DNA of 64,000 bases from Candidatus Altiarchaeota archaeon (GCA_043800255.1 JAZDNF010000009.1:1-64000); one strand, 5' to 3'. Shown: positions 1 to 13,251, counted from the stretch's first letter. The notes: a model not told the origin generated them from the sequence alone. Program-made: numbers and translations.

Positions 1-139
1 CGACGTAACCTCAGACAGAACCTGGACCTGGACCGACATAAGCAACATGAACGTCGAAGCCAGATTCATAAGAACCGGAGGCACAGACAACATAGACTGG
101 TACGTAGACACCCTATGGACAAGAATATGCCACACATAA
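1..139 (+). CDS. 3' end of an upstream, probably surface/pilin-associated protein (partial)
   Basis: Frame from nt 2 reads DVTSDRTWTWTDISNMNVEARFIRTGGTDNIDWYVDTLWTRICHT* and overlaps the next start; not in the ORF track. Confidence 0.55.
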   Translation, partial: DVTSDRTWTWTDISNMNVEARFIRTGGTDNIDWYVDTLWTRICHT

Positions 140-657
140 AAACAAAAAAAGGACAGATTAGCACTTTGGACCTAGTTCTAGCATCGTCTATCTTCATCGG
201 AATACTCCTCATAAGCATGACCACATGGAATGACGTGCTCATGAGAAGCTACCGTTTCGAGAACAAGAGGGAGATAAACCAGAAGGCGATGGACGTGTCG
301 GAGCTGCTGGTTCTGACCGGAGGCGACCCAGCATACTGGCATCTCTTCCCTATCGAAGACGTGAACGCAGACAATGTGACGTCGATCGGCCTTGCTGCGG
401 AGCCTAACTTCCTTGACAGGGACAAGATAGAGAAGATGGCGCAGGTGAACTATGACACGCTCCGCGACATCATGGGACTCAGCAAGGAGGACTTCAACAT
501 AACCATATACAACTCAACGAACCAGGCGGTCTATACGATGGGAATCGGGGAGAGCGAGGCCACAGTCGTTATGAGAAGGTACGCCCTCCTGGACGGCGAC
601 AACACGAGGATAGAATTGAGGCTGTTCTATAACATAAGCAGCGGATTGACGACATAA
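127..657 (+). CDS. Class III signal peptide (archaeal type IV pilin-like) protein
   Basis: KKG|QISTLD followed by a hydrophobic helix; start ATG 127 (alternative 115). Confidence 0.75.
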   Translation: MPHIKTKKGQISTLDLVLASSIFIGILLISMTTWNDVLMRSYRFENKREINQKAMDVSELLVLTGGDPAYWHLFPIEDVNADNVTSIGLAAEPNFLDRDKIEKMAQVNYDTLRDIMGLSKEDFNITIYNSTNQAVYTMGIGESEATVVMRRYALLDGDNTRIELRLFYNISSGLTT

Positions 658-658
658 G

Positions 659-1042
659 ATGACAGGACTGTTCACGTTGGACACGATACTGGCGATTACG
701 GTAGCCTTCAGCATGATAACCGCATCCTATCTCCTGCTAGCAGGCCAGAAAATAGACAACAGGGAGCACCTGTTCCAGACTTCGGCAGACATACTGACAA
801 TAGCCGAGAAGAACGGCAGACTGTCAAGAGCTATTGACGGCGACAAAAGCGGCATAAACGAGTATAAAGGCCTCCTCTCAAGCGGCGTATGCTTCAGCCT
901 CGACATAGAGAACACCTCAGGCAGCATCATCTCGCACGATGACACTGGATGCGATATGCCTGACTCCTATGCCATAGCAAGGAGGACAGTATACCATAAC
1001 AGGCAATTCTACATATCAACGCTGAGAGTGTGGTACAGATGA
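659..1042 (+). CDS. Minor pilin-like protein
   Basis: MTG|LFTLD plus hydrophobic helix; tandem with other pilin-like ORFs. Confidence 0.65.
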   Translation: MTGLFTLDTILAITVAFSMITASYLLLAGQKIDNREHLFQTSADILTIAEKNGRLSRAIDGDKSGINEYKGLLSSGVCFSLDIENTSGSIISHDDTGCDMPDSYAIARRTVYHNRQFYISTLRVWYR

Positions 1043-1857
1043 GAAAAGGCATACTCTTCACGATGCTGACGGTCCTGCTCCTGCTGTCAGTGTTCATACT
1101 GGCTTCGTACTTCTCAAAGCCTGATAGTAACAGGGACATACAGGGAGAGAAGACGAGGCTGATATACGATGACATACGGTCCGACTTTGAGGATATAACA
1201 GGCATTACGGTGACAGTAAACCAGACTTCCGACACGATAACAATCTCAGACAGGTTCCCCCTCGAAAACGGCACAGGACTGTTCGAAAGGTATGAGAGCT
1301 TCATAAACACCACATACGCTGGAAAATGGAACACGAACATAACACTGGCGAACGTGGGCGACCCGGCATTCTGGATATTCCCCTACTGGCTGAAGTACGA
1401 ATACGACAGCCTCAACAAGACGCTCCTAAGAGTTTACAACGCCAGCGGGAACGCGGACTACGTCGCAGGATACAACATAACGCTCGTATTCCACGGGAAC
1501 ATCGTCAACGTCTCGGAGAGCACGAACGGCGGCACATTTGAATTCTACCTGAACGCGACATTCGCGAACGGCTCCCATGCGTTCTCAGGGAACATAGCAA
1601 GAGACCAGAACTCGACCTGGTTCTTCGACTTCGGAACTTCGAACTTCACCATGCAGGCAGGCAAGAACGTGATAGCTGGGGAGGAGAGGAACAGCACACT
1701 CTCCTACAGGATAAACGGCTCAGAGGTAACCTCCCAGATTGCGATAAAATTCCAGGCAACAGAGGCAAACATAGGGATGAGACCGAACCTGTTCATAAAC
1801 ATAACCGACAAAGTGAAGAAGGCAGACTACGTCTGGATAACGCCGCCAACACCGTAG
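1039..1857 (+). CDS. Pilin-like/adhesin surface protein, many N-x-S/T sequons
   Basis: MRKG|ILFT plus hydrophobic helix; ATGA overlap with the previous gene; Ser/Thr-rich frame continues past the TAG. Confidence 0.65.
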   Translation: MRKGILFTMLTVLLLLSVFILASYFSKPDSNRDIQGEKTRLIYDDIRSDFEDITGITVTVNQTSDTITISDRFPLENGTGLFERYESFINTTYAGKWNTNITLANVGDPAFWIFPYWLKYEYDSLNKTLLRVYNASGNADYVAGYNITLVFHGNIVNVSESTNGGTFEFYLNATFANGSHAFSGNIARDQNSTWFFDFGTSNFTMQAGKNVIAGEERNSTLSYRINGSEVTSQIAIKFQATEANIGMRPNLFINITDKVKKADYVWITPPTP

Positions 1858-1898
1858 ACGGCGGAAAGCACTACGTCAACTAGCACAACAAGCACTGC

Positions 1899-2033
1899 AT
1901 GACCTGCCAGCAGGCCTGCTCAAATGGAGGATACACACTCTGGCAGTGCAGAAACGGATGCGGAGGACAGTATCCAATATACGAACCAAGCGGAGACCCA
2001 AATTGCACACCAAAAATATGCTGCTGCGGATAG
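1899..2033 (+). pseudogene. 44-aa 8-Cys module, detached C-terminal domain of 1039..1857 or a small coupled ORF
   Basis: MTCQQACSNGGYTLWQCRNGCGGQYPIYEPSGDPNCTPKICCCG*, followed by a T-tract at 2035-2040. Confidence 0.55.
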
Positions 2034-2065
2034 GTTTTTTATCCTGATATCAATAGTTAACAAGC

Positions 2066-3067
2066 ATGCCAAACCAAGAAACCGTAACCGAAAGCAGAAA
2101 CCTGCGGCAGGAGTTTCTAGAGCTTATCTTCAAGGCCCGCGCGGTTAGGCTGGGCGAGGCGTGCAAGGCCCTTGAAATACCGAAGAACACCGGCTGGGAG
2201 TGGGCTGTCCAGCTGAAGAGAGAGGGCCTCATAGAAGTCAGAACGCATCTTCTAAGGGATACTAAGCTCGTCAGGAGGGAGGATGCGCACATACCGAACT
2301 TCGGCAGCTGCACTGTGATAGCAGTGTCAAACCAGAAGGGAGGGGTCGGGAAGACGATAACCGCGATGAACCTCTCAGCTGCCCTCGCCCTCAAGGGAAA
2401 AAAGACCCTGCTTGTTGACTCTGACCCGCAGGCTAACACGACATCGGGCATAGGATTCGACAAGCACGGCATAAGATACAGCATATATGATGGCATAATC
2501 AGGGACAGGCCGCTCGACGACATACTGCTGCCGACCAACATCAAGAACCTGCATCTTGTGCCGTCGAACGTCGACCTCGCTGGAGCTGAGATAGAGATGG
2601 TCCCATTGGAGTACAGAGAAACCAGGCTAAGGCACCTTCTGTACGGCATAAGGGAGAAGTACGATTACATCATCATAGACTGCCCGCCGTCGCTTGGACT
2701 GTTGACTTTGAACGGGCTCACAGCCTCAGACTCGGTTCTCATCCCCGTACAGTGCGACTACTATGCGATGGAGGGGATGAGCCAGCTCCTCTACACCATA
2801 GACCTGGTCAAGAACAGGCTGAACCCGGGGCTGAAGCTGGAGGGGATACTGCTCACCATGTATGATCCCAAGATAAAGCTGTCAGTCCAGGTCGCCGACG
2901 AAGTCAAACACCATTTCAAGGACAGAGTGCACACTACGATCATACCGAGGAACGCGAAACTCGGCGAGGCTCCCAGCTTCGGGAAGACGATACTGGAGTA
3001 CGACAAAAACTCTCCGGGAGCTAAAGCGTACATGGAACTGGCAAAAGAGGTAATAGAAAATGGCTGA
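2066..3067 (+). CDS. parA: ParA/Soj family ATPase with N-terminal winged-helix-like extension
   Basis: Deviant Walker A NQKGGVGKT, DSDPQANTT, IIIDCPPSLG, IPRNAKLGEAPSFG; about 75-aa N-terminal extension. Confidence 0.9.
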   Translation: MPNQETVTESRNLRQEFLELIFKARAVRLGEACKALEIPKNTGWEWAVQLKREGLIEVRTHLLRDTKLVRREDAHIPNFGSCTVIAVSNQKGGVGKTITAMNLSAALALKGKKTLLVDSDPQANTTSGIGFDKHGIRYSIYDGIIRDRPLDDILLPTNIKNLHLVPSNVDLAGAEIEMVPLEYRETRLRHLLYGIREKYDYIIIDCPPSLGLLTLNGLTASDSVLIPVQCDYYAMEGMSQLLYTIDLVKNRLNPGLKLEGILLTMYDPKIKLSVQVADEVKHHFKDRVHTTIIPRNAKLGEAPSFGKTILEYDKNSPGAKAYMELAKEVIENG

Positions 3068-3257
3068 CAAAGTTTTGGGTAAGGGAATACGCGCCTTAAT
3101 CCCCGAGAGGCTTGAGACAGAGGACGAGGACGTGAGAAAGGTCCTGAGGATGTTGGACAACCTCCTTGAGAAGCTGCCGGACGATGCCGTGAAGGAATTC
3201 GCAAACTCTGAGGATTTCAGGCTATATGAGAAGGTTCTCAGAAAGTACGGGATATAA
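3060..3257 (+). CDS. Small protein with ParB/Spo0J-type N-terminal ParA-activating peptide
   Basis: MADKVLGKGIRALIP resembles the LG(K/R)GL.AL motif; overlaps parA by 8 nt and the next gene by TAATG. Confidence 0.75.
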   Translation: MADKVLGKGIRALIPERLETEDEDVRKVLRMLDNLLEKLPDDAVKEFANSEDFRLYEKVLRKYGI

Positions 3258-5611
3258 TGGGCTTAAGGGATAAGGCAAAAAAGCTGAGGGATGAAAAAAC
3301 CAAGACTCCGACTGCAAAGGCAGACAAGCCGCGAAAGGAGCTTAATGAACAGTCCTTTCTGAGCGTGATGCCTGAGTTCGGGAGGATAACCCTCCAAGAG
3401 ACTGTTGATAAGCTGGGTTGCCCTCCTGCAGAGATTAAGAAAGTCGCGAAAGAACTGGACAAGAAGCAGCTCATAAAAATACAAAAACACATAAGGGGGG
3501 AGACTGAATTCTGGGTGACCAGGAAACTCTACGACAGCAGGCAGGAGAAGCCGAAGAAGGAAAAGGAGAAAGCAGAGGAGCTCGGGAAACCGGCGGAGAA
3601 TGGAAGAATCGAGACCGATGAAACGAAAATCCGGCTCAGGGACATCGTGCCGTCTGAGGGAAGCCTGAGGCTGAGAGACGCCTGCAGCCAGCTTGGAATA
3701 GACAATACGCAGGGCAAAAAGCTCGCGAAGGCATTATACAATGACGGCTATGTCAGGGTTAGACTGCACTTTATGGGCGGCAGGGAGCTGCTGGCAACAA
3801 AAAAGCTGGTAACGTACCGGAAGGATCTCGAGGACTACGACAAAGCCAAGGCAGACGAGAGGCGCAGGGACGAAATCGCGAGTGTAGACAGGATAAACAC
3901 GCAGTTGGACGAGATCATCAGAGTGTTGAACAACAGGGGGAACGCCACAGTCTCCCAGGTATCCGAGTTGTTGAAGATTGAGCCTGACATGATACTGAGT
4001 TTCGCCAGGATTATGCCAAAGCTGGTGGATGTGGAATACCCTGCCAACATACTTGCCAGCCCAGTCCTGAAAATCAAGAAGAAGCTAGTATCGGCGGAGA
4101 GCCCCTTCCCCGCTGGGGAGATGCTGGACAGCTATACAGTGAACGCCGACAACGTCCCTGCCAAGATATTCATGATAGACACTCCCGAGGATTCGATGCC
4201 GCTTTATGTAATGAGGATACCGACGCCGGGGCCGGGAACGCGGGAGGCCGTAAGGTTCCTCTCAGACAAGCTCAGCGACGAGATAACAATACAATCCGAG
4301 GAGATAACAGACCCCAAGAGGATGGCCGAACTGAGGAAGAAGTTCGGCGACATCTCGACAAAGCTTGTCGAAAATTACATACCAGCCGGACAGGATGAGA
4401 AGAAAATCCTGGCGGGGATGCTGCTGCACAGGACATTCGGGCTGGGCTATGTCGAGCTGATGATGAACGATGACTGGCTTGAGGAGGTCTGCGTCAACAC
4501 AAGCCACACGCCGCTGACAGCATACCACAAGAAGTTCGGATGGTCTATGACCAACATGTTCCTGGAGGACGAGAACATGATATACAATTACGCCTCCCAG
4601 ATTGGCAGGAAAATCGGGAAGGGGATATCGAACCTGGACCCGATAATGGATGCCCACCTGCTCACCGGGGACAGGGTGAACGCCACACTGTTTCCCATAT
4701 CGTCTTTGGGGAACACGATAACCATACGGAAGTTCGCGAGGCAGCCGTGGACGATAACCCATTTCATATCCCCGGAATATCTGACGCTGTCGAAGGAGAT
4801 TGCCGCGTTCCTGTGGCTCTGCCTGCAGTACGAGCTTAACATCATAGTCGGCGGTGGAACAGCATCCGGAAAGACGAGCGTCCTCAACTGCCTGCTGTCG
4901 CTGATACAGCCAACGCACAGGATAATAACCATCGAGGACACGAGGGAGATAAACCTCCCAAAATTCCTGTACTGGAACTGGATTCCGCTTACTACGAGAG
5001 ACCCGAACCCTGAAGGCAAGGGCGAGGTATCGATGCTCGACCTGATAGTGACGTCACTCAGGATGAGGCCTGACAGGGTGGTCTTGGGCGAAGTCAGGAG
5101 GCGGAACGAGGCTGAAGTCATGTTCGAGGCGATGCACACCGGCCACTCCGTCTACGGCACCATGCACGCTGACACGTCAAGAAACCTGAAGAGGAGGCTG
5201 CTTGAGCCGCCCATAGAGCTGCCGGCGCAGGAGGTCGAAGCCCTCCACCTGATACTGATACAGTACAGGGACAGGACTACGGGGAAGAGGAAGACGTTCG
5301 AAGTCGCTGAGATAGTGCCTGGCACCGAGTCGAAGGAGTTCGACCTCAATTATCTGTACAGGTGGAACCCAAGAACCCAGAGCTTTTCAAAGATCAATGA
5401 AAGCCAGAGAGTATACAACGAGCTTAACCTGCACACCGGCATGGACAAGGACGAGATCGAAAAAGACCTGAAGGAGAAGGAGGAAGTGCTGCAGTGGATG
5501 CTCGACAAGAGGATAGACACCATAGACGAGGTCGGCCGCGTGATGGACAGATACTACAAGAACAAGAACAGGCTGCTTGACATTGTAAGAGCGAAGAAGG
5601 ATTTAGAATGA
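3257..5611 (+). CDS. Type IV pilus/Tad secretion ATPase (CpaF/FlaI/VirB11 family) with long N-terminal wHTH-like repeats
   Basis: GGTASGKT, ITIEDTRE, LRMRPDRVVLGEVR, MHTGH. Confidence 0.9.
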   Translation: MGLRDKAKKLRDEKTKTPTAKADKPRKELNEQSFLSVMPEFGRITLQETVDKLGCPPAEIKKVAKELDKKQLIKIQKHIRGETEFWVTRKLYDSRQEKPKKEKEKAEELGKPAENGRIETDETKIRLRDIVPSEGSLRLRDACSQLGIDNTQGKKLAKALYNDGYVRVRLHFMGGRELLATKKLVTYRKDLEDYDKAKADERRRDEIASVDRINTQLDEIIRVLNNRGNATVSQVSELLKIEPDMILSFARIMPKLVDVEYPANILASPVLKIKKKLVSAESPFPAGEMLDSYTVNADNVPAKIFMIDTPEDSMPLYVMRIPTPGPGTREAVRFLSDKLSDEITIQSEEITDPKRMAELRKKFGDISTKLVENYIPAGQDEKKILAGMLLHRTFGLGYVELMMNDDWLEEVCVNTSHTPLTAYHKKFGWSMTNMFLEDENMIYNYASQIGRKIGKGISNLDPIMDAHLLTGDRVNATLFPISSLGNTITIRKFARQPWTITHFISPEYLTLSKEIAAFLWLCLQYELNIIVGGGTASGKTSVLNCLLSLIQPTHRIITIEDTREINLPKFLYWNWIPLTTRDPNPEGKGEVSMLDLIVTSLRMRPDRVVLGEVRRRNEAEVMFEAMHTGHSVYGTMHADTSRNLKRRLLEPPIELPAQEVEALHLILIQYRDRTTGKRKTFEVAEIVPGTESKEFDLNYLYRWNPRTQSFSKINESQRVYNELNLHTGMDKDEIEKDLKEKEEVLQWMLDKRIDTIDEVGRVMDRYYKNKNRLLDIVRAKKDLE

Positions 5612-6492
5612 GAATCCCCTTTATGATAGTGCCGGCGAAGAGCGTCGTAGTCCGCGCCCAACGTTGGAGAGGCATAACCTGCAGGATCTCCAACCTGATA
5701 CCCCAGCTGGAAACCAGCCTCAAGAGGACTGACGTGAGGATAAGGGCTGAGGACTACATCAGCGCCGCCATAATCAATTCCATAATCTGGGGGCTGCTGT
5801 TTTTCATACTAATATACGCGCTTCTTACGGTAGTGGGAGAAGGCTACAACAGGGCTATGCTGATGTCTGCCGGCGCGTTCCTGCTGGCGTTCGGGCTTTT
5901 TCTGGTAGTGCTGCTCCTGTACCCGAGGATTATGGCAGGGAAGAGAGCTGAGAGCGTTAACAAGGATCTCGCATACGCCCTGAAGGACATGTTGCTGGAG
6001 GTGAGCGCAGGCTCATCATTGTATGACGCGATGCTTAACATCGCAAAATCAGACTACGGAGTCGTCTCCGAGGAGTTCGGCCTGATAGTAAAGAAGGTCG
6101 ACACCGGCGTTCCTTTGGACGATGCCATGGAGAGCCTCGCCCTCAGAACCAGCTCGGATTACCTGAGGAACGCGACATGGCAGATGATAAACGCCCTGAA
6201 GGCAGGCTCCAACATCGAGAGCACCTTGAGGGAGATCGTCAGGATGCTGATCGATAATCAGAGGAACATGATAAGGAACTACGCCCAGGAGCTGAACGTC
6301 CTGTCCCTCATATACATGCTCTTCGCCGTGGTCATCCCGACGATAGCGTCGACGATTGCCATAATAGTGGCGCCGTTCCTGGGCATAGCAGCCGGGCCCA
6401 GGATATTCTACTTCATACTCCCTTTAACGTTTTTCATACAGATCGCATTGCTTGAGCTTATCAAAAGCAGGAGACCGGTGATACACCTCTGA
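5608..6492 (+). CDS. Type II secretion system F family (TadB/C, FlaJ-like) membrane platform protein
   Basis: TM helices flanking a cytoplasmic domain (DYGVVSEEF...); ATGA-coupled to the ATPase. Confidence 0.85.
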   Translation: MRIPFMIVPAKSVVVRAQRWRGITCRISNLIPQLETSLKRTDVRIRAEDYISAAIINSIIWGLLFFILIYALLTVVGEGYNRAMLMSAGAFLLAFGLFLVVLLLYPRIMAGKRAESVNKDLAYALKDMLLEVSAGSSLYDAMLNIAKSDYGVVSEEFGLIVKKVDTGVPLDDAMESLALRTSSDYLRNATWQMINALKAGSNIESTLREIVRMLIDNQRNMIRNYAQELNVLSLIYMLFAVVIPTIASTIAIIVAPFLGIAAGPRIFYFILPLTFFIQIALLELIKSRRPVIHL

Positions 6493-6494
6493 AA

Positions 6495-7460
6495 ATGCTG
6501 AACAGGATTTTCATCACAGCCTCGAAGGTCTATCCTAAGGGGTACAGGAACGGCGTTCGGAAGAACCTGGGATACGCCGGCATCGAGACTCCGGTGGAGA
6601 TTTGGCTGGGGCAGTCCCTCTTCATAGGATTCTTCGTCCTCATCGCCATCTCGGCTCTCGCAAGATTCGGAAACCCTGTCCTGTTTTACACCCTGGCTTT
6701 CCTCTCGTTCATGATATACCAGGTTGGCTCCTATTCGATACCGTACTTTCAGGCTATGAACCGCTCAAATGCTGTCGACGAGATGCTTCCTGACCTGTTG
6801 AGACTGATGGCGACCGATATCAGGGCGGGGATGACGCCCTTCCAGGCAATAAAAGTCTCTGCGAGGGATGAGTTCGGCATCCTCAAGCACGAGCTTGACA
6901 GGGCAAGCGCAAAATCCCTCGGCATAGGCTCATTCAATGAGGCCCTGCTTGAGATGTGCGACAGGCTCAATTCATACGCGCTGAACAGGGCCATGAGATT
7001 GTTCATCAGGAGCATGGAGGGCGGAGGACAGCTTGCGAACGTCTTGGACGAGACAGCGAGAGACATCTCAGAGAACCTTTCGCTCAAGAAAGAGCTTCTG
7101 TCAGCGACCAGGACCTACACCATCCTCATACTGGTGAGCGTCCTCATTGGAACGCCCCTGCTGCTGACGATCTCGATACACTTCACTGAGAGGGTCAATG
7201 AGATGCGGGAGTCGCTTAACGTCTCTGACATGGAGAACTTTGATCTGGGGATGCTGCTGAACATGGGCTTCGACCCAGCGGTGTTGGAGAACATATCAGC
7301 CATAACAATTCTGGTAACGACTTTGATAGCCTGCATGCTGTTCGGCGTCATAGTGGAGGGCAAGGAAAAATACGGCCTGAAGTACGCCTTCTTCCTGGTG
7401 CCGCTGTCGCTGATACTGTTCTACGCGTTCAGGCTGGCGAGCAAGATAATACTGAAATAG
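6495..7460 (+). CDS. Second T2SS-F family membrane platform protein
   Basis: LPDLLRLMATDIRAGMTP, EFGILKHE, GGQLANVL motifs; multiple TM helices. Confidence 0.85.
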   Translation: MLNRIFITASKVYPKGYRNGVRKNLGYAGIETPVEIWLGQSLFIGFFVLIAISALARFGNPVLFYTLAFLSFMIYQVGSYSIPYFQAMNRSNAVDEMLPDLLRLMATDIRAGMTPFQAIKVSARDEFGILKHELDRASAKSLGIGSFNEALLEMCDRLNSYALNRAMRLFIRSMEGGGQLANVLDETARDISENLSLKKELLSATRTYTILILVSVLIGTPLLLTISIHFTERVNEMRESLNVSDMENFDLGMLLNMGFDPAVLENISAITILVTTLIACMLFGVIVEGKEKYGLKYAFFLVPLSLILFYAFRLASKIILK

Positions 7461-7461
7461 C

Positions 7462-7506
7462 TTATATAGGCTTAAATCTAATAGGATTTAACGTAATCGG
7501 AGGTGA
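7462..7506 (+). promoter_or_regulatory. Putative TATA box and strong Shine-Dalgarno for the pilin gene
   Basis: TTATATA at 7462-7468; GGAGGTGA at 7499-7506, 7 nt before the ATG. Confidence 0.5.
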
Positions 7507-7513
7507 AAAGCAT

Positions 7514-7957
7514 ATGAGGAAAGCACAGGCGTCGACCGAGTATCTGGTAATCCTTGCAGTTGTCATTATCATAGCTTTGGTCGTTGTGGCCGTATTAGGA
7601 GGTTTTATAGACATTGGAAGAGGAGCTGACGCTCAGGCTGCCAAGTCTTATTGGAGGATAGCCGACATCGGACTCGTGGACTGGAACCAGGATGCAACCA
7701 CTCTGACAGTTGTTGCCAGGAACAACCAGGACTACAAGATTGCCATAAGCGCTATCAGCCCTGACGGCGGTGTGACTAATTCGTCAGCCAATTCGGGGCC
7801 GATACAACCAGGCGGAACGAAGACCTTCACGATAACCAAGTCTTGCAGTAGCGGTGACACGTACAGTTACCCGATGACGGTTTACTACAACGACACCCAG
7901 CATGGCATAAACAGCAAGATCTTCACCGGCGCGAAAGACGTAATTGGGACCTGCTAG
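7514..7957 (+). CDS. Archaeal type IV pilin, probable major pilin
   Basis: MRKA|QASTEYLVILAVVIIIALVVV canonical class III signal with E+5. Confidence 0.88.
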   Translation: MRKAQASTEYLVILAVVIIIALVVVAVLGGFIDIGRGADAQAAKSYWRIADIGLVDWNQDATTLTVVARNNQDYKIAISAISPDGGVTNSSANSGPIQPGGTKTFTITKSCSSGDTYSYPMTVYYNDTQHGINSKIFTGAKDVIGTC

Positions 7958-7966
7958 TTCCAATTA

Positions 7967-7983
7967 TTCTTTTTTATTTTTTT
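7967..7983 (+). terminator. Oligo-T archaeal terminator
   Basis: TTCTTTTTTATTTTTTT just after the pilin stop. Confidence 0.6.
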
Positions 7984-7999
7984 ATGCTAATAGGTTAAT

Positions 8000-8371
8000 A
8001 TGACATTCGTTGCGGTCAGTTCCACGGAGCTCGTTCTGAACGTGGTTAACCTCGTTCTCGCATTCGCATGCGTCATAGAATCGGCCCTCATATTCCAGAT
8101 AATAGTCAACAAGGAGTTCAGGCAGAACATGAGGAAAAAGTCGATAAGCATAATGGAGCTCATAATAGCATGGCGGAGGATAATCATGGGCATCGTCTTC
8201 TTCGCCATCGTCCAAGCCTACTACCTTCTGTCGAAGTACGGCGAGAGGAGCATCTCACTCGCATATGAGCTGTTCGTGACAGCCTTCCTTTTCCTGCTCG
8301 TTACCGGGCTCTTCGAATACTATAATGCGCTGAAGAAGGTCAGGGACATGATGACAGCAGAAGGCGAATGA
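8000..8371 (+). CDS. Hypothetical membrane protein
   Basis: Three hydrophobic segments; ATGA-coupled to the next gene. Confidence 0.6.
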   Translation: MTFVAVSSTELVLNVVNLVLAFACVIESALIFQIIVNKEFRQNMRKKSISIMELIIAWRRIIMGIVFFAIVQAYYLLSKYGERSISLAYELFVTAFLFLLVTGLFEYYNALKKVRDMMTAEGE

Positions 8372-8787
8372 ACCTCTTAGCCCACGTTCTGCTGTCATAC
8401 AGGATAGCCTCCTATTTTACGGCAGACCCTGTTCTAATGGCTGCTGCCGTCTTATTGGGAGTGCTGCCGGACGTCGACCACCTGTCCCATATTCCAAAGG
8501 CGCTGAAAACGCTCAGGTTCGGCTCAGCCTCAAGGTCAAGATTCCACGAACTGTACGGCCTGAGCGTCAGCACCATACTCTTAGCCATGCTGCCGGCGGG
8601 CATTATGCCCATATTGTTCTTCCCACTGCTCTCTCATTACGTGTTGGATTTCTTCACAAGGGAGACGCGCCCCTTTTATCCGAGAGACAGAACAGAGTTA
8701 TACGTGGGCTGGTATCCTAAAGGCCTGAAGATGAGGACGTTATCTGACATCATACTTACGGGAGGTCTGCTTCTATGGGTTTTATAG
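8368..8787 (+). CDS. Membrane-bound metal-dependent hydrolase (YdjM/DUF457-like)
   Basis: H, LPDVDH, RSRFHE and SHYVLD motifs. Confidence 0.7.
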   Translation: MNLLAHVLLSYRIASYFTADPVLMAAAVLLGVLPDVDHLSHIPKALKTLRFGSASRSRFHELYGLSVSTILLAMLPAGIMPILFFPLLSHYVLDFFTRETRPFYPRDRTELYVGWYPKGLKMRTLSDIILTGGLLLWVL

Positions 8788-9179
8788 GAGTACACTCCAG
8801 GTTCACGAACCTGAGGAAAATGCTGGGCCTGAACGTCCCGGTAGACCCCAGAACGGTTTCCGCACTGAGCGTGCTAGTCTCTCTTGGAGTAATATACAAC
8901 CTCAGTTACACCCTGGTAGTAGTCCTTCTCTTGGACCTGCTGGACGGGATGATATCCAGAGGCAGGGAGATGGCATCCAGAGACGGTCTTCTCATGGACT
9001 ATGCCTGCGACAGGTACTCGGAGTTCATCATATTCGGATACCTGGCAGTCTCCAATCCAATCCTGCTCACACTCCCTGTTCTGAACACGCTCATAACCTT
9101 TAAGAACATCGAGGACAAGAGATTCATCATACTGCCGCTGAGGCAGCTCCTCCTCCTGGTAAAGCTGCTCGGCCTATAG
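8775..9179 (+). CDS. CDP-alcohol phosphatidyltransferase family protein
   Basis: DLLDGMISR...G..MDYACDRYSE signature. Confidence 0.75.
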   Translation: MGFIGVHSRFTNLRKMLGLNVPVDPRTVSALSVLVSLGVIYNLSYTLVVVLLLDLLDGMISRGREMASRDGLLMDYACDRYSEFIIFGYLAVSNPILLTLPVLNTLITFKNIEDKRFIILPLRQLLLLVKLLGL

Positions 9180-10127
9180 TCTTTCGACTATTGCACCTTT
9201 ATTGTCAGCCGCGGCAACAAATGCTTTCGCAGGTATTCTCTTTAGCTTCAGGAACTTCTCAACTCCGCCGGCTATCCTGTTGCTGTCCTTCTTCTCCGTG
9301 AGGGCGTAGACTGTTGGTCCCCAGGAGCTCTGGCCTGCGCCGTAGCATCCTATGCCCAGCAGGAAATCGACCAGGTCGCTGGTCGCGTCGCCCATGTAGA
9401 TGCCTGACTGCTCGCCTTTGAAGTATGAGCCGACGAGACGGTCTATCTCGACAAGCGATTTCCCGAATGCCTGGATGTCCTCCTCGACCAGCGAAGGCAG
9501 CATCCTCATCTGGAGCAGCCAGGATATCCTGGATGCAGTCCTCTCGGAGGCTGGAACTATGTTCGCGAAGGCCTCCAGCTCCTTGAGGCCGTGGAAGCCT
9601 TTGCCCACCTTCGGAACGACGACAATGAACTCCCAATCCTTTGGAAAATCCCTGTGGAAGGTCACAGGAGGCAGCGAGGCTGACATGCTCTTGTGGCCTC
9701 CGTCGACGACGAAGCCGCCATGCCTGAAGACGGCAGCACCGACTCCAGATACATGACCCCGCCCAGACATCAATGCTACCTCCTTGGGCTTGAAATCCAA
9801 GCCGTAAAGCTCTGATATTCCAGTGCCAACAGCAAGCGCAAGCTGTGTTCCTGAGCCGAGCCCCACATGCTCAGGTATCGTTTCCAATGCTCTGATGCCG
9901 ACGCCGCCCTTAAGGCTGAAGGCATCAAGGAACAATCTCGCATATGACCGCACAGTCCCTCCGTTTTTTCCTGAGACAGCCACTCTCTTGGATTTCTTGA
10001 ACTCTAGAATGTTGTTCGGTTTGGCAAGCGCTACCCCAATGCCGCCGTAAAGCCTCCCAAGCCTCCCGCTCATGTCGATTATGCCGAAATGCAGCCTCGA
10101 CGGCGTCTTAACCCTTACCTTTGTCAT
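9174..10127 (-). CDS. mptG: Beta-ribofuranosylaminobenzene 5'-phosphate (RFA-P) synthase
   Basis: TPSRLHFG, PEHVGLGSGTQ, GGFVVDGG, GQSSWGPT (GHMP-like family). Confidence 0.85.
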   Translation of the reverse strand: MTKVRVKTPSRLHFGIIDMSGRLGRLYGGIGVALAKPNNILEFKKSKRVAVSGKNGGTVRSYARLFLDAFSLKGGVGIRALETIPEHVGLGSGTQLALAVGTGISELYGLDFKPKEVALMSGRGHVSGVGAAVFRHGGFVVDGGHKSMSASLPPVTFHRDFPKDWEFIVVVPKVGKGFHGLKELEAFANIVPASERTASRISWLLQMRMLPSLVEEDIQAFGKSLVEIDRLVGSYFKGEQSGIYMGDATSDLVDFLLGIGCYGAGQSSWGPTVYALTEKKDSNRIAGGVEKFLKLKRIPAKAFVAAADNKGAIVERL

Positions 10128-12462: not shown

Positions 12463-13251
12463 ATGGCAAAGGAGAATTCCAAGGAGAAGGAGTTTATGCC
12501 GGTCAGGGTGTCGACTTTCGACAAGCTGATAACAAACGGCGGGATTGAGAGGGGGAATACTGTGCTGCTCTCTGGGGGGTGCGGTTCCGGGAAAACAATA
12601 TTCGGAGTCCAGTCGGTATACAATGCCGTCTTAAACAACGAGAAAGCAGTCTACATAACATTGGAGGAGACTGCGGAGAAGATCAAACGGCACATGAAGA
12701 GGAACTTCGGCTGGGATTTGGATGCGCTGGAGGAGAGGGGCAGCCTGTCGATGCAGTACATAGACTCAGTCGAGCTTGCAAAAGACATAGAGCAGACGCT
12801 GGATGAAGGTGATCTGAGGGACAAGTCATCGATTGAGCTGATACTCGAAAAACATCCTGAGATATCTCTGATAGACTCGAGGAGGGTTGGACTGCCGTTC
12901 AAGCCTGACAGGATCGTCGTCGACTCGCTGACAGCTCTTTCAAGCTCTTTCTCAGACCTGAAGAAGTACAGGCTTTACCTGCAGGTTATGGTCGACTCGC
13001 TGAACAAGCACGATTCCGTGAACATCCTGCTCGGCGAGACTGACCAGGACCCTGTGAAATACAGCTCGCACGGGCCGGAGGAATTCCTCGTCGACGGCGT
13101 GGTCGTGCTCTACAACATCAGGAAGGGGCAGCTGAGGAGGAGGGCCATAGAAATCGTAAAGATGAGATGCTCGGACCACGTGAAGGAGCTTATCCCTTAT
13201 ACGATAGACAAGAGCGGTTTCAAGATAATGCCCTCTGACAAACTTTTCTAG
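12463..13251 (+). CDS. KaiC/RAD55-like single-domain ATPase
   Basis: GGCGSGKT, YITLEE, VVDS, EEFLVDG, KMR. Confidence 0.85.
   Translation: MAKENSKEKEFMPVRVSTFDKLITNGGIERGNTVLLSGGCGSGKTIFGVQSVYNAVLNNEKAVYITLEETAEKIKRHMKRNFGWDLDALEERGSLSMQYIDSVELAKDIEQTLDEGDLRDKSSIELILEKHPEISLIDSRRVGLPFKPDRIVVDSLTALSSSFSDLKKYRLYLQVMVDSLNKHDSVNILLGETDQDPVKYSSHGPEEFLVDGVVVLYNIRKGQLRRRAIEIVKMRCSDHVKELIPYTIDKSGFKIMPSDKLF

Follow-up and report, generated by a model that had tools for sequence, protein, structure and literature searches.

The first 64 kb of a 358-kb contig from a Candidatus Altiarchaeota archaeon (GCA_043800255.1 JAZDNF010000009.1:1-64000; genome 1.75 Mb, 93% complete), here referred to as the window, carry a nine-gene type IV pilus operon in which a gene for a ParA ATPase (parA), a small open reading frame (ORF) of 65 aa and a gene for an N-terminally extended pilus ATPase follow one another. 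The gene order is three pilin-like genes, parA, the 65-aa ORF (termed the adaptor, as explained below), the ATPase gene, two platform genes and a pilin gene. The initial annotation, made from the sequence of the window, had described overlaps of 8 nt between parA and the 65-aa ORF, 1 nt between the 65-aa ORF and the ATPase gene and 4 nt between the ATPase gene and the first platform gene, and had placed this group between pilin genes and two T2SS-F genes. The coordinates agree with this description, and all ORFs listed at that time were recovered at the same positions on the + strand. A GAGGT site lies 9 nt upstream of the 65-aa ORF. The features on which the argument turns are the following.

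2066-3067, + strand: parA, 333 aa (Pfam AAA_31 at 5e-66)
2066-2311, + strand: N-terminal extension of ParA, ~82 aa, winged-helix-like (BLASTP likeness to a winged helix of the ATPase)
2312-3067, + strand: Soj-type ParA ATPase core, residues 83-333 (AAA_31; gapless to 8RAY)
3060-3257, + strand: small ORF (adaptor), 65 aa, overlapping parA and the ATPase gene
3060-3110, + strand: putative ParB-like ParA-interaction peptide, adaptor residues 1-17 (ParB N-terminus profile)
3126-3257, + strand: C-terminal three-helix domain of the adaptor, residues 23-62 (precomputed label PF27359, TP_0179)
3257-5611, + strand: secretion ATPase, 784 aa (T2SSE at 1.1e-29)
3257-4246, + strand: N-terminal module of the ATPase, an MGLxxKA helix and three winged helices (model and Foldseek)
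4247-5611, + strand: FlaI/TadA-like secretion ATPase core (T2SSE at 1.1e-29)

A Soj-type ParA with a putative N-terminal winged helix

ParA scored 222 bits against AAA_31 (cut-off 27), and its residues 83-333 matched the structure of Myxococcus xanthus ParA (8RAY) at 2.7e-87, without gaps along the crystal construct, followed by Soj of Thermus thermophilus (1WCV; 3.2e-64) and of Helicobacter pylori (6IUB; 1e-61). These are the best solved relatives, and they bear out the initial annotation, which had likened the ParA core to bacterial Soj rather than to MinD; the motifs quoted in its support are present in the translation. A MinD/CpaE-type ParA was rejected, the models for minD_arch (85 bits vs. 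a cut-off of ~201-202), minD_bact (55 vs. 213) and CpaE_hom (26 vs. 154) all remaining far below their cut-offs. The NCBIfam equivalogs for ParA_partition (103 vs. 180), RepA (126 vs. 348) and SopA (54 vs. 725) were rejected as well. The best matching segments in 80 bacterial genomes, all Soj, were 50-63% identical to the window ParA, more than the 36-46% that it shares with its own operon orthologs, and among the operon ParAs it is the least diverged from Soj.

The residues expected of a working ParA are in place. The deviant Walker A motif (K91-G-G-V-G-K96-T97), including the signature lysine, Motif 2 (D118, D120, N124) and Walker B D205 are all present, and these motifs are kept in five of five full-length operon orthologs, with the exception of N124S in one of them (L023). 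For the binding surfaces we mapped residues using the numbering given in extracts of PMC12462528 (M. xanthus) and PMC6393308 (T. thermophilus Soj). The pocket for the ParB helix is kept, M. xanthus V116, L150, L152, L155, L187 and L192 corresponding to I176, L210, L212, L215, L247 and L252, and so is the cluster that senses the central Arg/Lys of the peptide (M. xanthus Y81, E82, D110 and E117; window Y141, D142, D170 and E177). At the positions of the patch for non-specific DNA binding, R182, R194, R208 and R211 of T. thermophilus Soj correspond to K269, K281, R295 and K298 of the window ParA, all of them basic.

In front of this core lies the extension of ~82 residues, which resembles the second of the modelled winged helices of the ATPase (ParA residues 1-82 vs. 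ATPase residues 112-179; BLASTP 2e-5). It is present in five of five full-length operon orthologs and missing from bacterial Soj and from the ParAs of a sister family described below. On these sequence grounds we conclude that ParA is a Soj-type deviant Walker-A ATPase that appears to have gained an N-terminal winged helix.

We also considered the genomic and phylogenetic setting of parA. In the 93% complete genome we found no ParB/Srx domain (PF02195; the same search was positive in 10 of 14 known genomes used as a control) and no parS site within 1 mismatch of the consensus; moreover, the window parA is the only Soj-like ParA gene in the genome. Because there is neither a ParB domain nor a parS site and this is the sole Soj-like ParA, a classical role in partition would be without its partners. 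In a quick maximum-likelihood tree (89 rows, 263 columns; bacterial rows chosen for likeness to the query), 76 bacterial Soj proteins fell on one side (Shimodaira-Hasegawa-like approximate likelihood ratio test, 91) and the archaeal ParAs lay outside on long branches; no bacterial donor can be named from this tree. Constraining the six operon ParAs to group together improved the tree by 14 log-likelihood units over the free quick search (approximately unbiased test, p-AU 0.73), a result compatible with a single old origin of the operon ParAs.

The 65-aa protein as a predicted chimeric adaptor

In bacteria, 67 of the 76 parA ORFs examined were followed by a gene of 278-320 aa with a ParB-like N-terminus. 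We built a profile from 49 distinct N-termini of ParBs encoded beside bacterial Soj genes and scored with it every stop-to-stop segment of 30 aa or more in a six-frame translation of the whole genome, 30,807 in total. The adaptor ranked first among the 30,807 (12.6 bits, residues 5-17). Its residues L7, K9, I11, L14 and I15 correspond to L11, R13, L15, L18 and I19 of M. xanthus ParB, and mutations described in extracts of PMC12462528 show that these M. xanthus residues mediate both the binding and the activation of ParA. The best-scoring stretch was likewise N-terminal in all six adaptor orthologs (11.1 to 1.9 bits), and the window adaptor carries the most ParB-like peptide among them. Aligned with one another, the adaptors are 41-48% identical, and 11 columns are invariant. 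On sequence grounds, the predicted contact between adaptor and ParA is well supported.

The remainder of the protein does not resemble ParB. The 65-aa protein matched no Pfam or NCBIfam family, and a word-indexed protein search with it returned the query alone, a result that has no bearing on its rarity. We rejected a ParB on the grounds that the protein has no ParB/Srx CTPase domain, no parS-binding helix-turn-helix and no dimerisation domain, and that what follows the peptide is a three-helix bundle. Thus, the description as a "mini-ParB" in the initial annotation holds for the first ~17 residues, whereas the remaining ~45 form the three-helix domain of sister-family pilus-operon proteins and not a shortened ParB. 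The model of the adaptor (predicted local distance difference test, pLDDT, 77) has a one-turn helix at residues 10-13, a linker and helices at 23-37, 41-48 and 51-62; Foldseek returned nothing against the PDB at E <= 0.001. The label PF27359 (TP_0179) comes from precomputed annotation and the ESM Atlas.

A profile of the seven adaptor orthologs identified 2,557 cluster representatives with this domain (E <= 0.001), nearly always at the extreme C-terminus and in proteins of many lengths. Eight short proteins among the 150 best domain matches also begin with a ParB-like motif (P0013, P0024, P0039, P0066, P0030, P0008, P0003 and P0007). Of ten long proteins with the domain that were compared with Pfam, nine matched no family, and the tenth carries carbohydrate-binding and TSP3 domains that are unrelated. 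In the sister family the domain occurs in tandem (two copies) at the end of coiled-coil proteins of 330-490 aa, and in 12 of 15 such loci (L035-L049, e.g. L037 574-2629) the gene immediately downstream encodes a protein of ~315-420 aa that has MGLxD(K/R)xKK at, or no more than 13 residues from, its called start and a C-terminal winged helix-turn-helix (wHTH). Neither of these two proteins has a family in the searched copy of Pfam. In the one sister-family locus that was checked, a pilus ATPase gene comes next. In the window's family, the MGL-wHTH module is instead fused to the ATPase, and the protein encoded upstream has one copy of the domain with the ParB-like peptide in front. Because gene order and this fusion link the TP_0179 domain to the N-terminal module of the motor, we call the small protein an adaptor, and from the same two observations we infer that it contacts the ATPase. 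Because residues 1-17 are ParB-like and the rest is a pilus-operon domain of the sister family, the 65-aa protein is predicted to be a chimeric adaptor in which the ParA-interaction peptide of ParB is joined to a pilus-operon domain.

Two sister-family loci (L018 7899-11215 and L017 2482-5651) have a Soj-like ParA of their own, 49-51% identical and without the N-terminal winged helix, followed by a coiled-coil protein of 770-820 aa whose N-terminus (KSKxLExLIP) has weak likeness to the ParB motif (0.5-2.5 bits). The phylum may thus have another ParA cargo adaptor of a different kind, and a graft of a similar peptide onto this protein would suggest that new ParA cargos arise by transfer of the peptide between proteins. 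Two further observations concern single orthologs. In L023, adaptor residue 3, the central basic position that is Lys or Arg elsewhere, is Glu and ParA position 142 is Lys, while position 142 is Asp in four and Gly or Asn in two of the other six ParAs; a charge swap is possible, and as a single case it is an anecdote. In L022, a short run of N (~8940-8948) falls where parA ends and the adaptor gene starts, so that the start codon of the latter is not visible.

An N-terminal winged-helix module on the pilus ATPase

The ATPase core matched the FlaI model at 257 bits over residues 327-769, below the cut-off of 550. The initial annotation had recognised a wHTH extension on this protein, and its N-terminus indeed models (pLDDT 79.6) as three winged-helix modules (residues 31-87, 121-180 and 216-273) preceded by a helix at residues 3-15. 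The top Foldseek matches of this region were the tandem winged-helix proteins TFIIIC tauB, UFL1, RPC62 and ScpB, and ESCRT-II was also matched. Many of these matches, including ScpB, ESCRT-II, UFL1 and RPC62, are protein-binding scaffolds. The start of the ATPase (window 3257-3300), i.e. MGLxxKA and the Lys/Arg-rich helix 3-15, is invariant in both families while the remaining N-terminus diverges, and possibly serves as a peptide on which the TP_0179 domain or a MinD-type ATPase docks. A complex prediction for the ATPase N-terminus and the adaptor scored 0.09 against a mark of 0.32 and is evidence for neither side. A word-indexed protein search with ATPase residues 1-330 returned the query alone, which again does not bear on rarity.

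We rejected the idea that a wHTH extension as such is tied to ParA because an ATPase with a single N-terminal winged helix and no adjoining parA is encoded elsewhere in the genome (contig C8, L003 1489-3165) and because the wHTH module is found in sister operons without parA. A pilin-like protein of 446 aa is encoded upstream of this second pilus ATPase. In one relative (L020 4569-5630, minus strand), the orthologous ATPase has an extra acidic C-terminal tail of ~350 aa with a repeated KMSPTMKAM motif.

parA, adaptor and ATPase genes form a rare unit

The initial annotation had named a lack of conservation of the three genes in relatives as a refutation of its proposal, and this refutation fails. 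The gene order recurs in six other genomes, which is more than chance: the nine-gene operon is present in 7 of 21 genomes of the family, representing four genera with the window counted, and comprises all nine genes wherever the contig allows; one of these loci (L024) is a 3-kb contig with part of parA, the adaptor gene and the ATPase gene only. ParA homologs (E <= 1e-20) were found in 12 of 40 relatives, and in the equivalent operon in 6 of the 20 other genomes of the family (three further genera). Among 61 genomes of the phylum-level group, the adaptor profile had full-length matches in those seven only. Of the 49 searched genomes of the order, seven have the full ATPase N-terminus with MGL and three wHTH modules, and these are exactly the seven with parA and adaptor. 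We conclude that parA, adaptor and ATPase genes are a unit, but a rare one.

A proposed ParA system for the pilus motor

The initial annotation had inferred that a soj-spo0J module was co-opted to position the pilus motor or to link it to DNA. Our analysis supports this in part, in that a Soj-type ParA and a partner with the ParB-type N-terminal motif are encoded in overlapping frames within a pilus operon and relatives keep this arrangement. According to extracts of PMC10241942, partners of ParA/MinD ATPases engage the ATPase through an N-terminal peptide and the cargo through the remainder of the protein, and the gene neighbourhood predicts what the cargo is. Because the peptide of such a partner addresses the ATPase and the rest addresses the cargo, the pilus motor would be the cargo here. 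From the sequences, we lean slightly towards a ParA and partner that are dedicated to the cytoplasmic motor of the archaeal type IV pilus as their cargo, and ParA and the adaptor probably couple this motor to a ParA positioning system. Specifically, ATP-bound ParA dimers would sit on the nucleoid, attached by the Soj-type patch, by the winged helix or by the two together. The C-terminal domain of the adaptor would dock on the pilus ATPase or on its N-terminal MGL-wHTH module, and its N-terminal peptide would be presented to ParA, stimulating ATP hydrolysis and the release of ParA. The outcome would be as in McdAB, ParABS and PomXYZ, i.e. pilus machines would be placed or spaced relative to the nucleoid, or their number would be limited; we infer this positioning outcome by analogy with those systems. 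ParA with the pilus motor as its cargo is the best-supported reading; it accounts better than any of the alternatives below for the chimeric adaptor and for the strict co-occurrence with the extended ATPase. A more tentative proposal, which we hold to be a little less probable than its opposite, is that this lineage converted a bacterial-type Soj/ParB pair into a positioner of surface appendages by keeping ParA and, of ParB, no more than the ParA-activating peptide of ~17 residues, which was grafted onto a small motor-docking domain, with the nucleoid as the ruler by which pili are placed or counted.

Several findings weigh against a pilus motor carried by a nucleoid-bound ParA. First, pilus motors are membrane-anchored, and a nucleoid-based ratchet must accommodate this anchoring. 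Second, half of the orthologs have an eroded DNA patch: with the window counted, the residue is basic at K281 in six of six ParAs, at R295 in five, at K298 in three and at K269 in one, and each operon ortholog has only 1 to 3 of the four positions basic. Because the patch is only partly kept, the nucleoid as the matrix is uncertain for part of the clade, and this erosion speaks against a simple nucleoid ratchet. The conserved winged helix may replace the patch or may act in regulation instead. The winged helix also fits a regulatory role. Third, four of the six adaptor orthologs have a weak ParB-like motif (4.1, 2.8, 2.5 and 1.9 bits). Fourth, the distribution is patchy. The parA/adaptor system was found in 0 of 40 other genomes of the phylum that were searched. 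A metagenome scan with the whole ATPase gave 80 loci (43-59% identical and mostly unextended, the scan patterns coming mostly from the catalytic part), of which 78 had the ATPase ORF and 48 at least 1.5 kb upstream of it; in these 48 loci of the closest ATPase relatives parA was found in none and an ORF with the TP_0179 domain in one, and the scan thus added no operon copy. Because of the patchy spread and the 0 of 48 for parA, the system is an accessory and not a core part of the pilus.

We considered three other explanations for the arrangement, the first of which is a transcriptional switch. The type Ia plasmid ParAs P1 ParA and F SopA have an N-terminal DNA-binding extension, and the winged helix of the window ParA might similarly bind an operator and repress the pilus operon in a nucleotide-dependent manner, with the small protein as a co-regulator acting through its ParB-like peptide. 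The winged-helix-like extension of ~82 aa that all operon ParA orthologs have and bacterial Soj lacks is in line with this, as are a conserved basic motif in its wing (seen by eye in the alignment) and a TATA-like T-rich box ~25 nt upstream of parA (also by eye). However, we found no inverted repeat or iteron array near the operon, the SopA and RepA family models remained far below their cut-offs, and like winged helices are found three times in the ATPase and also in sister-family proteins that are not ParA, so that a scaffold fits better than an operator reader; a switch would also leave the pilus-operon domain of the partner unexplained. We therefore regard a transcriptional switch as unlikely.

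Still less probable is a role of the machine in DNA uptake or export, in line with the DNA link that the initial annotation had suggested; DNA would then be retained at the motor by ParA and by a total of four winged helices (one in ParA and three in the ATPase). While the Soj-type DNA-patch residues of the window ParA and the tandem winged helices on the ATPase are compatible with such a DNA link, the operon contains no nuclease, translocase, ComEC-like channel or DNA-processing gene, many of the tandem winged-helix scaffolds that Foldseek matched best are protein binders, the sister family has the winged-helix module without ParA, and the DNA patch decays in half of the orthologs. Finally, a horizontally acquired soj-spo0J pair that decayed in place, its position in the operon being without functional meaning, would agree with a ParA core whose identity to bacterial Soj (50-63%) exceeds that to its own orthologs (36-46%) and with the patchy distribution, but is very improbable given that position and overlapping frames are kept in four genera, that the small ORF has 11 invariant columns and a C-terminal domain that is folded in the model and unrelated to ParB, that co-occurrence with the extended ATPase is strict, and that the tree is better with the operon ParAs held together, compatible with one old origin.

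Relation to known ParA/MinD systems

ParA/MinD ATPases are general cargo-positioning devices of prokaryotes. To our knowledge, the adaptors of many of them have not been named and little has been reported on how archaeal pili are placed. The system proposed here, with ParA and the adaptor serving the pilus motor, shares with bacterial ParABS (Soj-Spo0J) a ParA core with 50-63% identity, with the catalytic motifs and ParB-peptide pocket kept and, in the window ParA, basic residues at the DNA-patch positions, and a partner gene directly downstream whose product starts with an LG(K/R)G..AL(I/F)P motif. It differs in that the partner is without the CTPase domain, parS helix-turn-helix and dimerisation domain, in the lack of a detected ParB_N domain or parS site in the genome, in the extra winged helix of ParA and in the location of the genes, which are in a pilus operon and not near the origin. 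With McdA-McdB of carboxysomes, PomXYZ, ParC and FlhG it has in common that a peptide addresses the ATPase, that the remainder addresses the cargo and that the genes lie beside those of the cargo (extracts of PMC10241942); here, in contrast, the cargo would be the motor of an archaeal type IV pilus, the peptide follows the canonical ParB pattern and not one specific to the system, and the adaptor has only 65 aa.

The initial annotation had not recognised the architecture as described. Our literature search agrees in that it found no archaeal pilus operon combining a Soj-type ParA with an adaptor that bears a ParB peptide, with the reservation that the supplementary tables of PMC4858521 and PMC13705601 may list such loci. 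ParA/MinD-family ATPases in archaeal pilus loci are, however, already known: extracts of these two papers report FleN/MinD-type ATPases (arCOG00589, arCOG05608) in or near archaeal type IV pilus loci, and MinD4, as cited in PMC13705601, positions the archaellum of Haloferax. Like these ATPases, and like TadZ/CpaE and FlhG/FleN, the window ParA is a ParA/MinD-superfamily ATPase at a type IV filament or flagellar locus; whereas TadZ/CpaE, FleN/MinD and MinD4 are MinD/FleN-type, it is Soj-type, with a ParB-peptide adaptor and an N-terminal winged helix, neither of which these extracts mention. TadZ/CpaE are the ParA/MinD-superfamily ATPases of Tad pili. With the type Ia plasmid ParAs (P1 ParA and F SopA) the window ParA shares an N-terminal extension, but the SopA and RepA models are far below their cut-offs. 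SegAB and pNOB8 ParA exemplify, in extracts of PMC6393308, that ParA homologs exist in archaea; unlike in those systems, no SegB, ParB or AspA-like site-specific DNA binder is encoded beside the window parA.

If the proposed arrangement is correct, the adaptor would be readable from its sequence as a ParB peptide and a 45-residue cargo domain, and the three proteins would make up a minimal system that is testable in vitro. The adaptor would also illustrate clearly how the grafting of a peptide can give rise to a new ParA cargo, and it would provide a first candidate role for the widespread TP_0179 domain, namely as a docking module of accessory proteins of the pilus motor.

Other genes and setting of the operon

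The other six genes of the operon and a gene remnant are listed here.

115-657, + strand: pilin-like gene 1, 180 aa (N-terminus KKGQISTLDLVLASSIFIGILL, class III signal-peptide-like by eye)
659-1042, + strand: pilin-like gene 2, 127 aa (hydrophobic N-terminus)
1030-1857, + strand: pilin-like gene 3, 275 aa, ending at TAG (orthologs in relatives)
1899-2033, + strand: Cys-rich ORF of 44 aa, putative detached C-terminal domain of pilin-like gene 3 (by-eye likeness to ortholog ends)
5608-6492, + strand: platform protein 1, T2SSF (PF00482 at 5e-18)
6495-7460, + strand: platform protein 2, T2SSF (PF00482 at 6.9e-16)
7514-7957, + strand: pilin, 147 aa (Class_IIIsignal E 0.0018, below cut-off)

An archaeal type IV pilus set of a T2SSE ATPase, two T2SSF genes and pilins is thus present, the N-termini of genes 1-3 being judged by eye. 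Pilin-like gene 1 has no Pfam match and has an ortholog at the equivalent position in five relatives; gene 2 has syntenic orthologs in five relatives (35-37% identity). The 147-aa pilin gene, present in one or two copies per relative, has by eye its own TATA-like box and Shine-Dalgarno site and an oligo-T tract past the stop. No prepilin (class III signal) peptidase gene was found in the part of the operon within the window, the rest of the genome not having been searched for one. As the window opens at the end of the contig, the true start of the operon may lie further upstream.

The stretch of 208 nt between pilin-like gene 3 and parA is not empty and contains a remnant of the Cys-rich C-terminal domain of this pilin-like gene. 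The 44-aa ORF lies downstream of the TAG at 1855-1857 in a frame that differs from that of gene 3, and its translation matches, by eye, the Cys-rich ends of the gene 3 orthologs in L020-L023. In these four loci gene 3 continues into a Cys-rich domain ending in CCC, with a Thr/Ser-rich linker in three of the four. The split at 1855-2033 is either real, as a split gene or pseudogene, or an assembly error.

A search for repeats in window positions 1-9200 gave short scattered matches only, with no iteron or centromere-like array. Because the flanking genes are housekeeping genes (a GHMP-kinase-type enzyme, an Obg-like GTPase and a KaiC-like ATPase), the locus is chromosomal. The gene for the KaiC-like ATPase (1.4e-46) lies at 12463-13251, 4.5 kb downstream of the operon, and KaiC/FlaH-like ATPases are associated with archaeal type IV pilus loci in extracts of PMC4858521. 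No RNA run is listed as containing this genome; three DNA runs of one study contain 0.19-0.35 of the sampled words.

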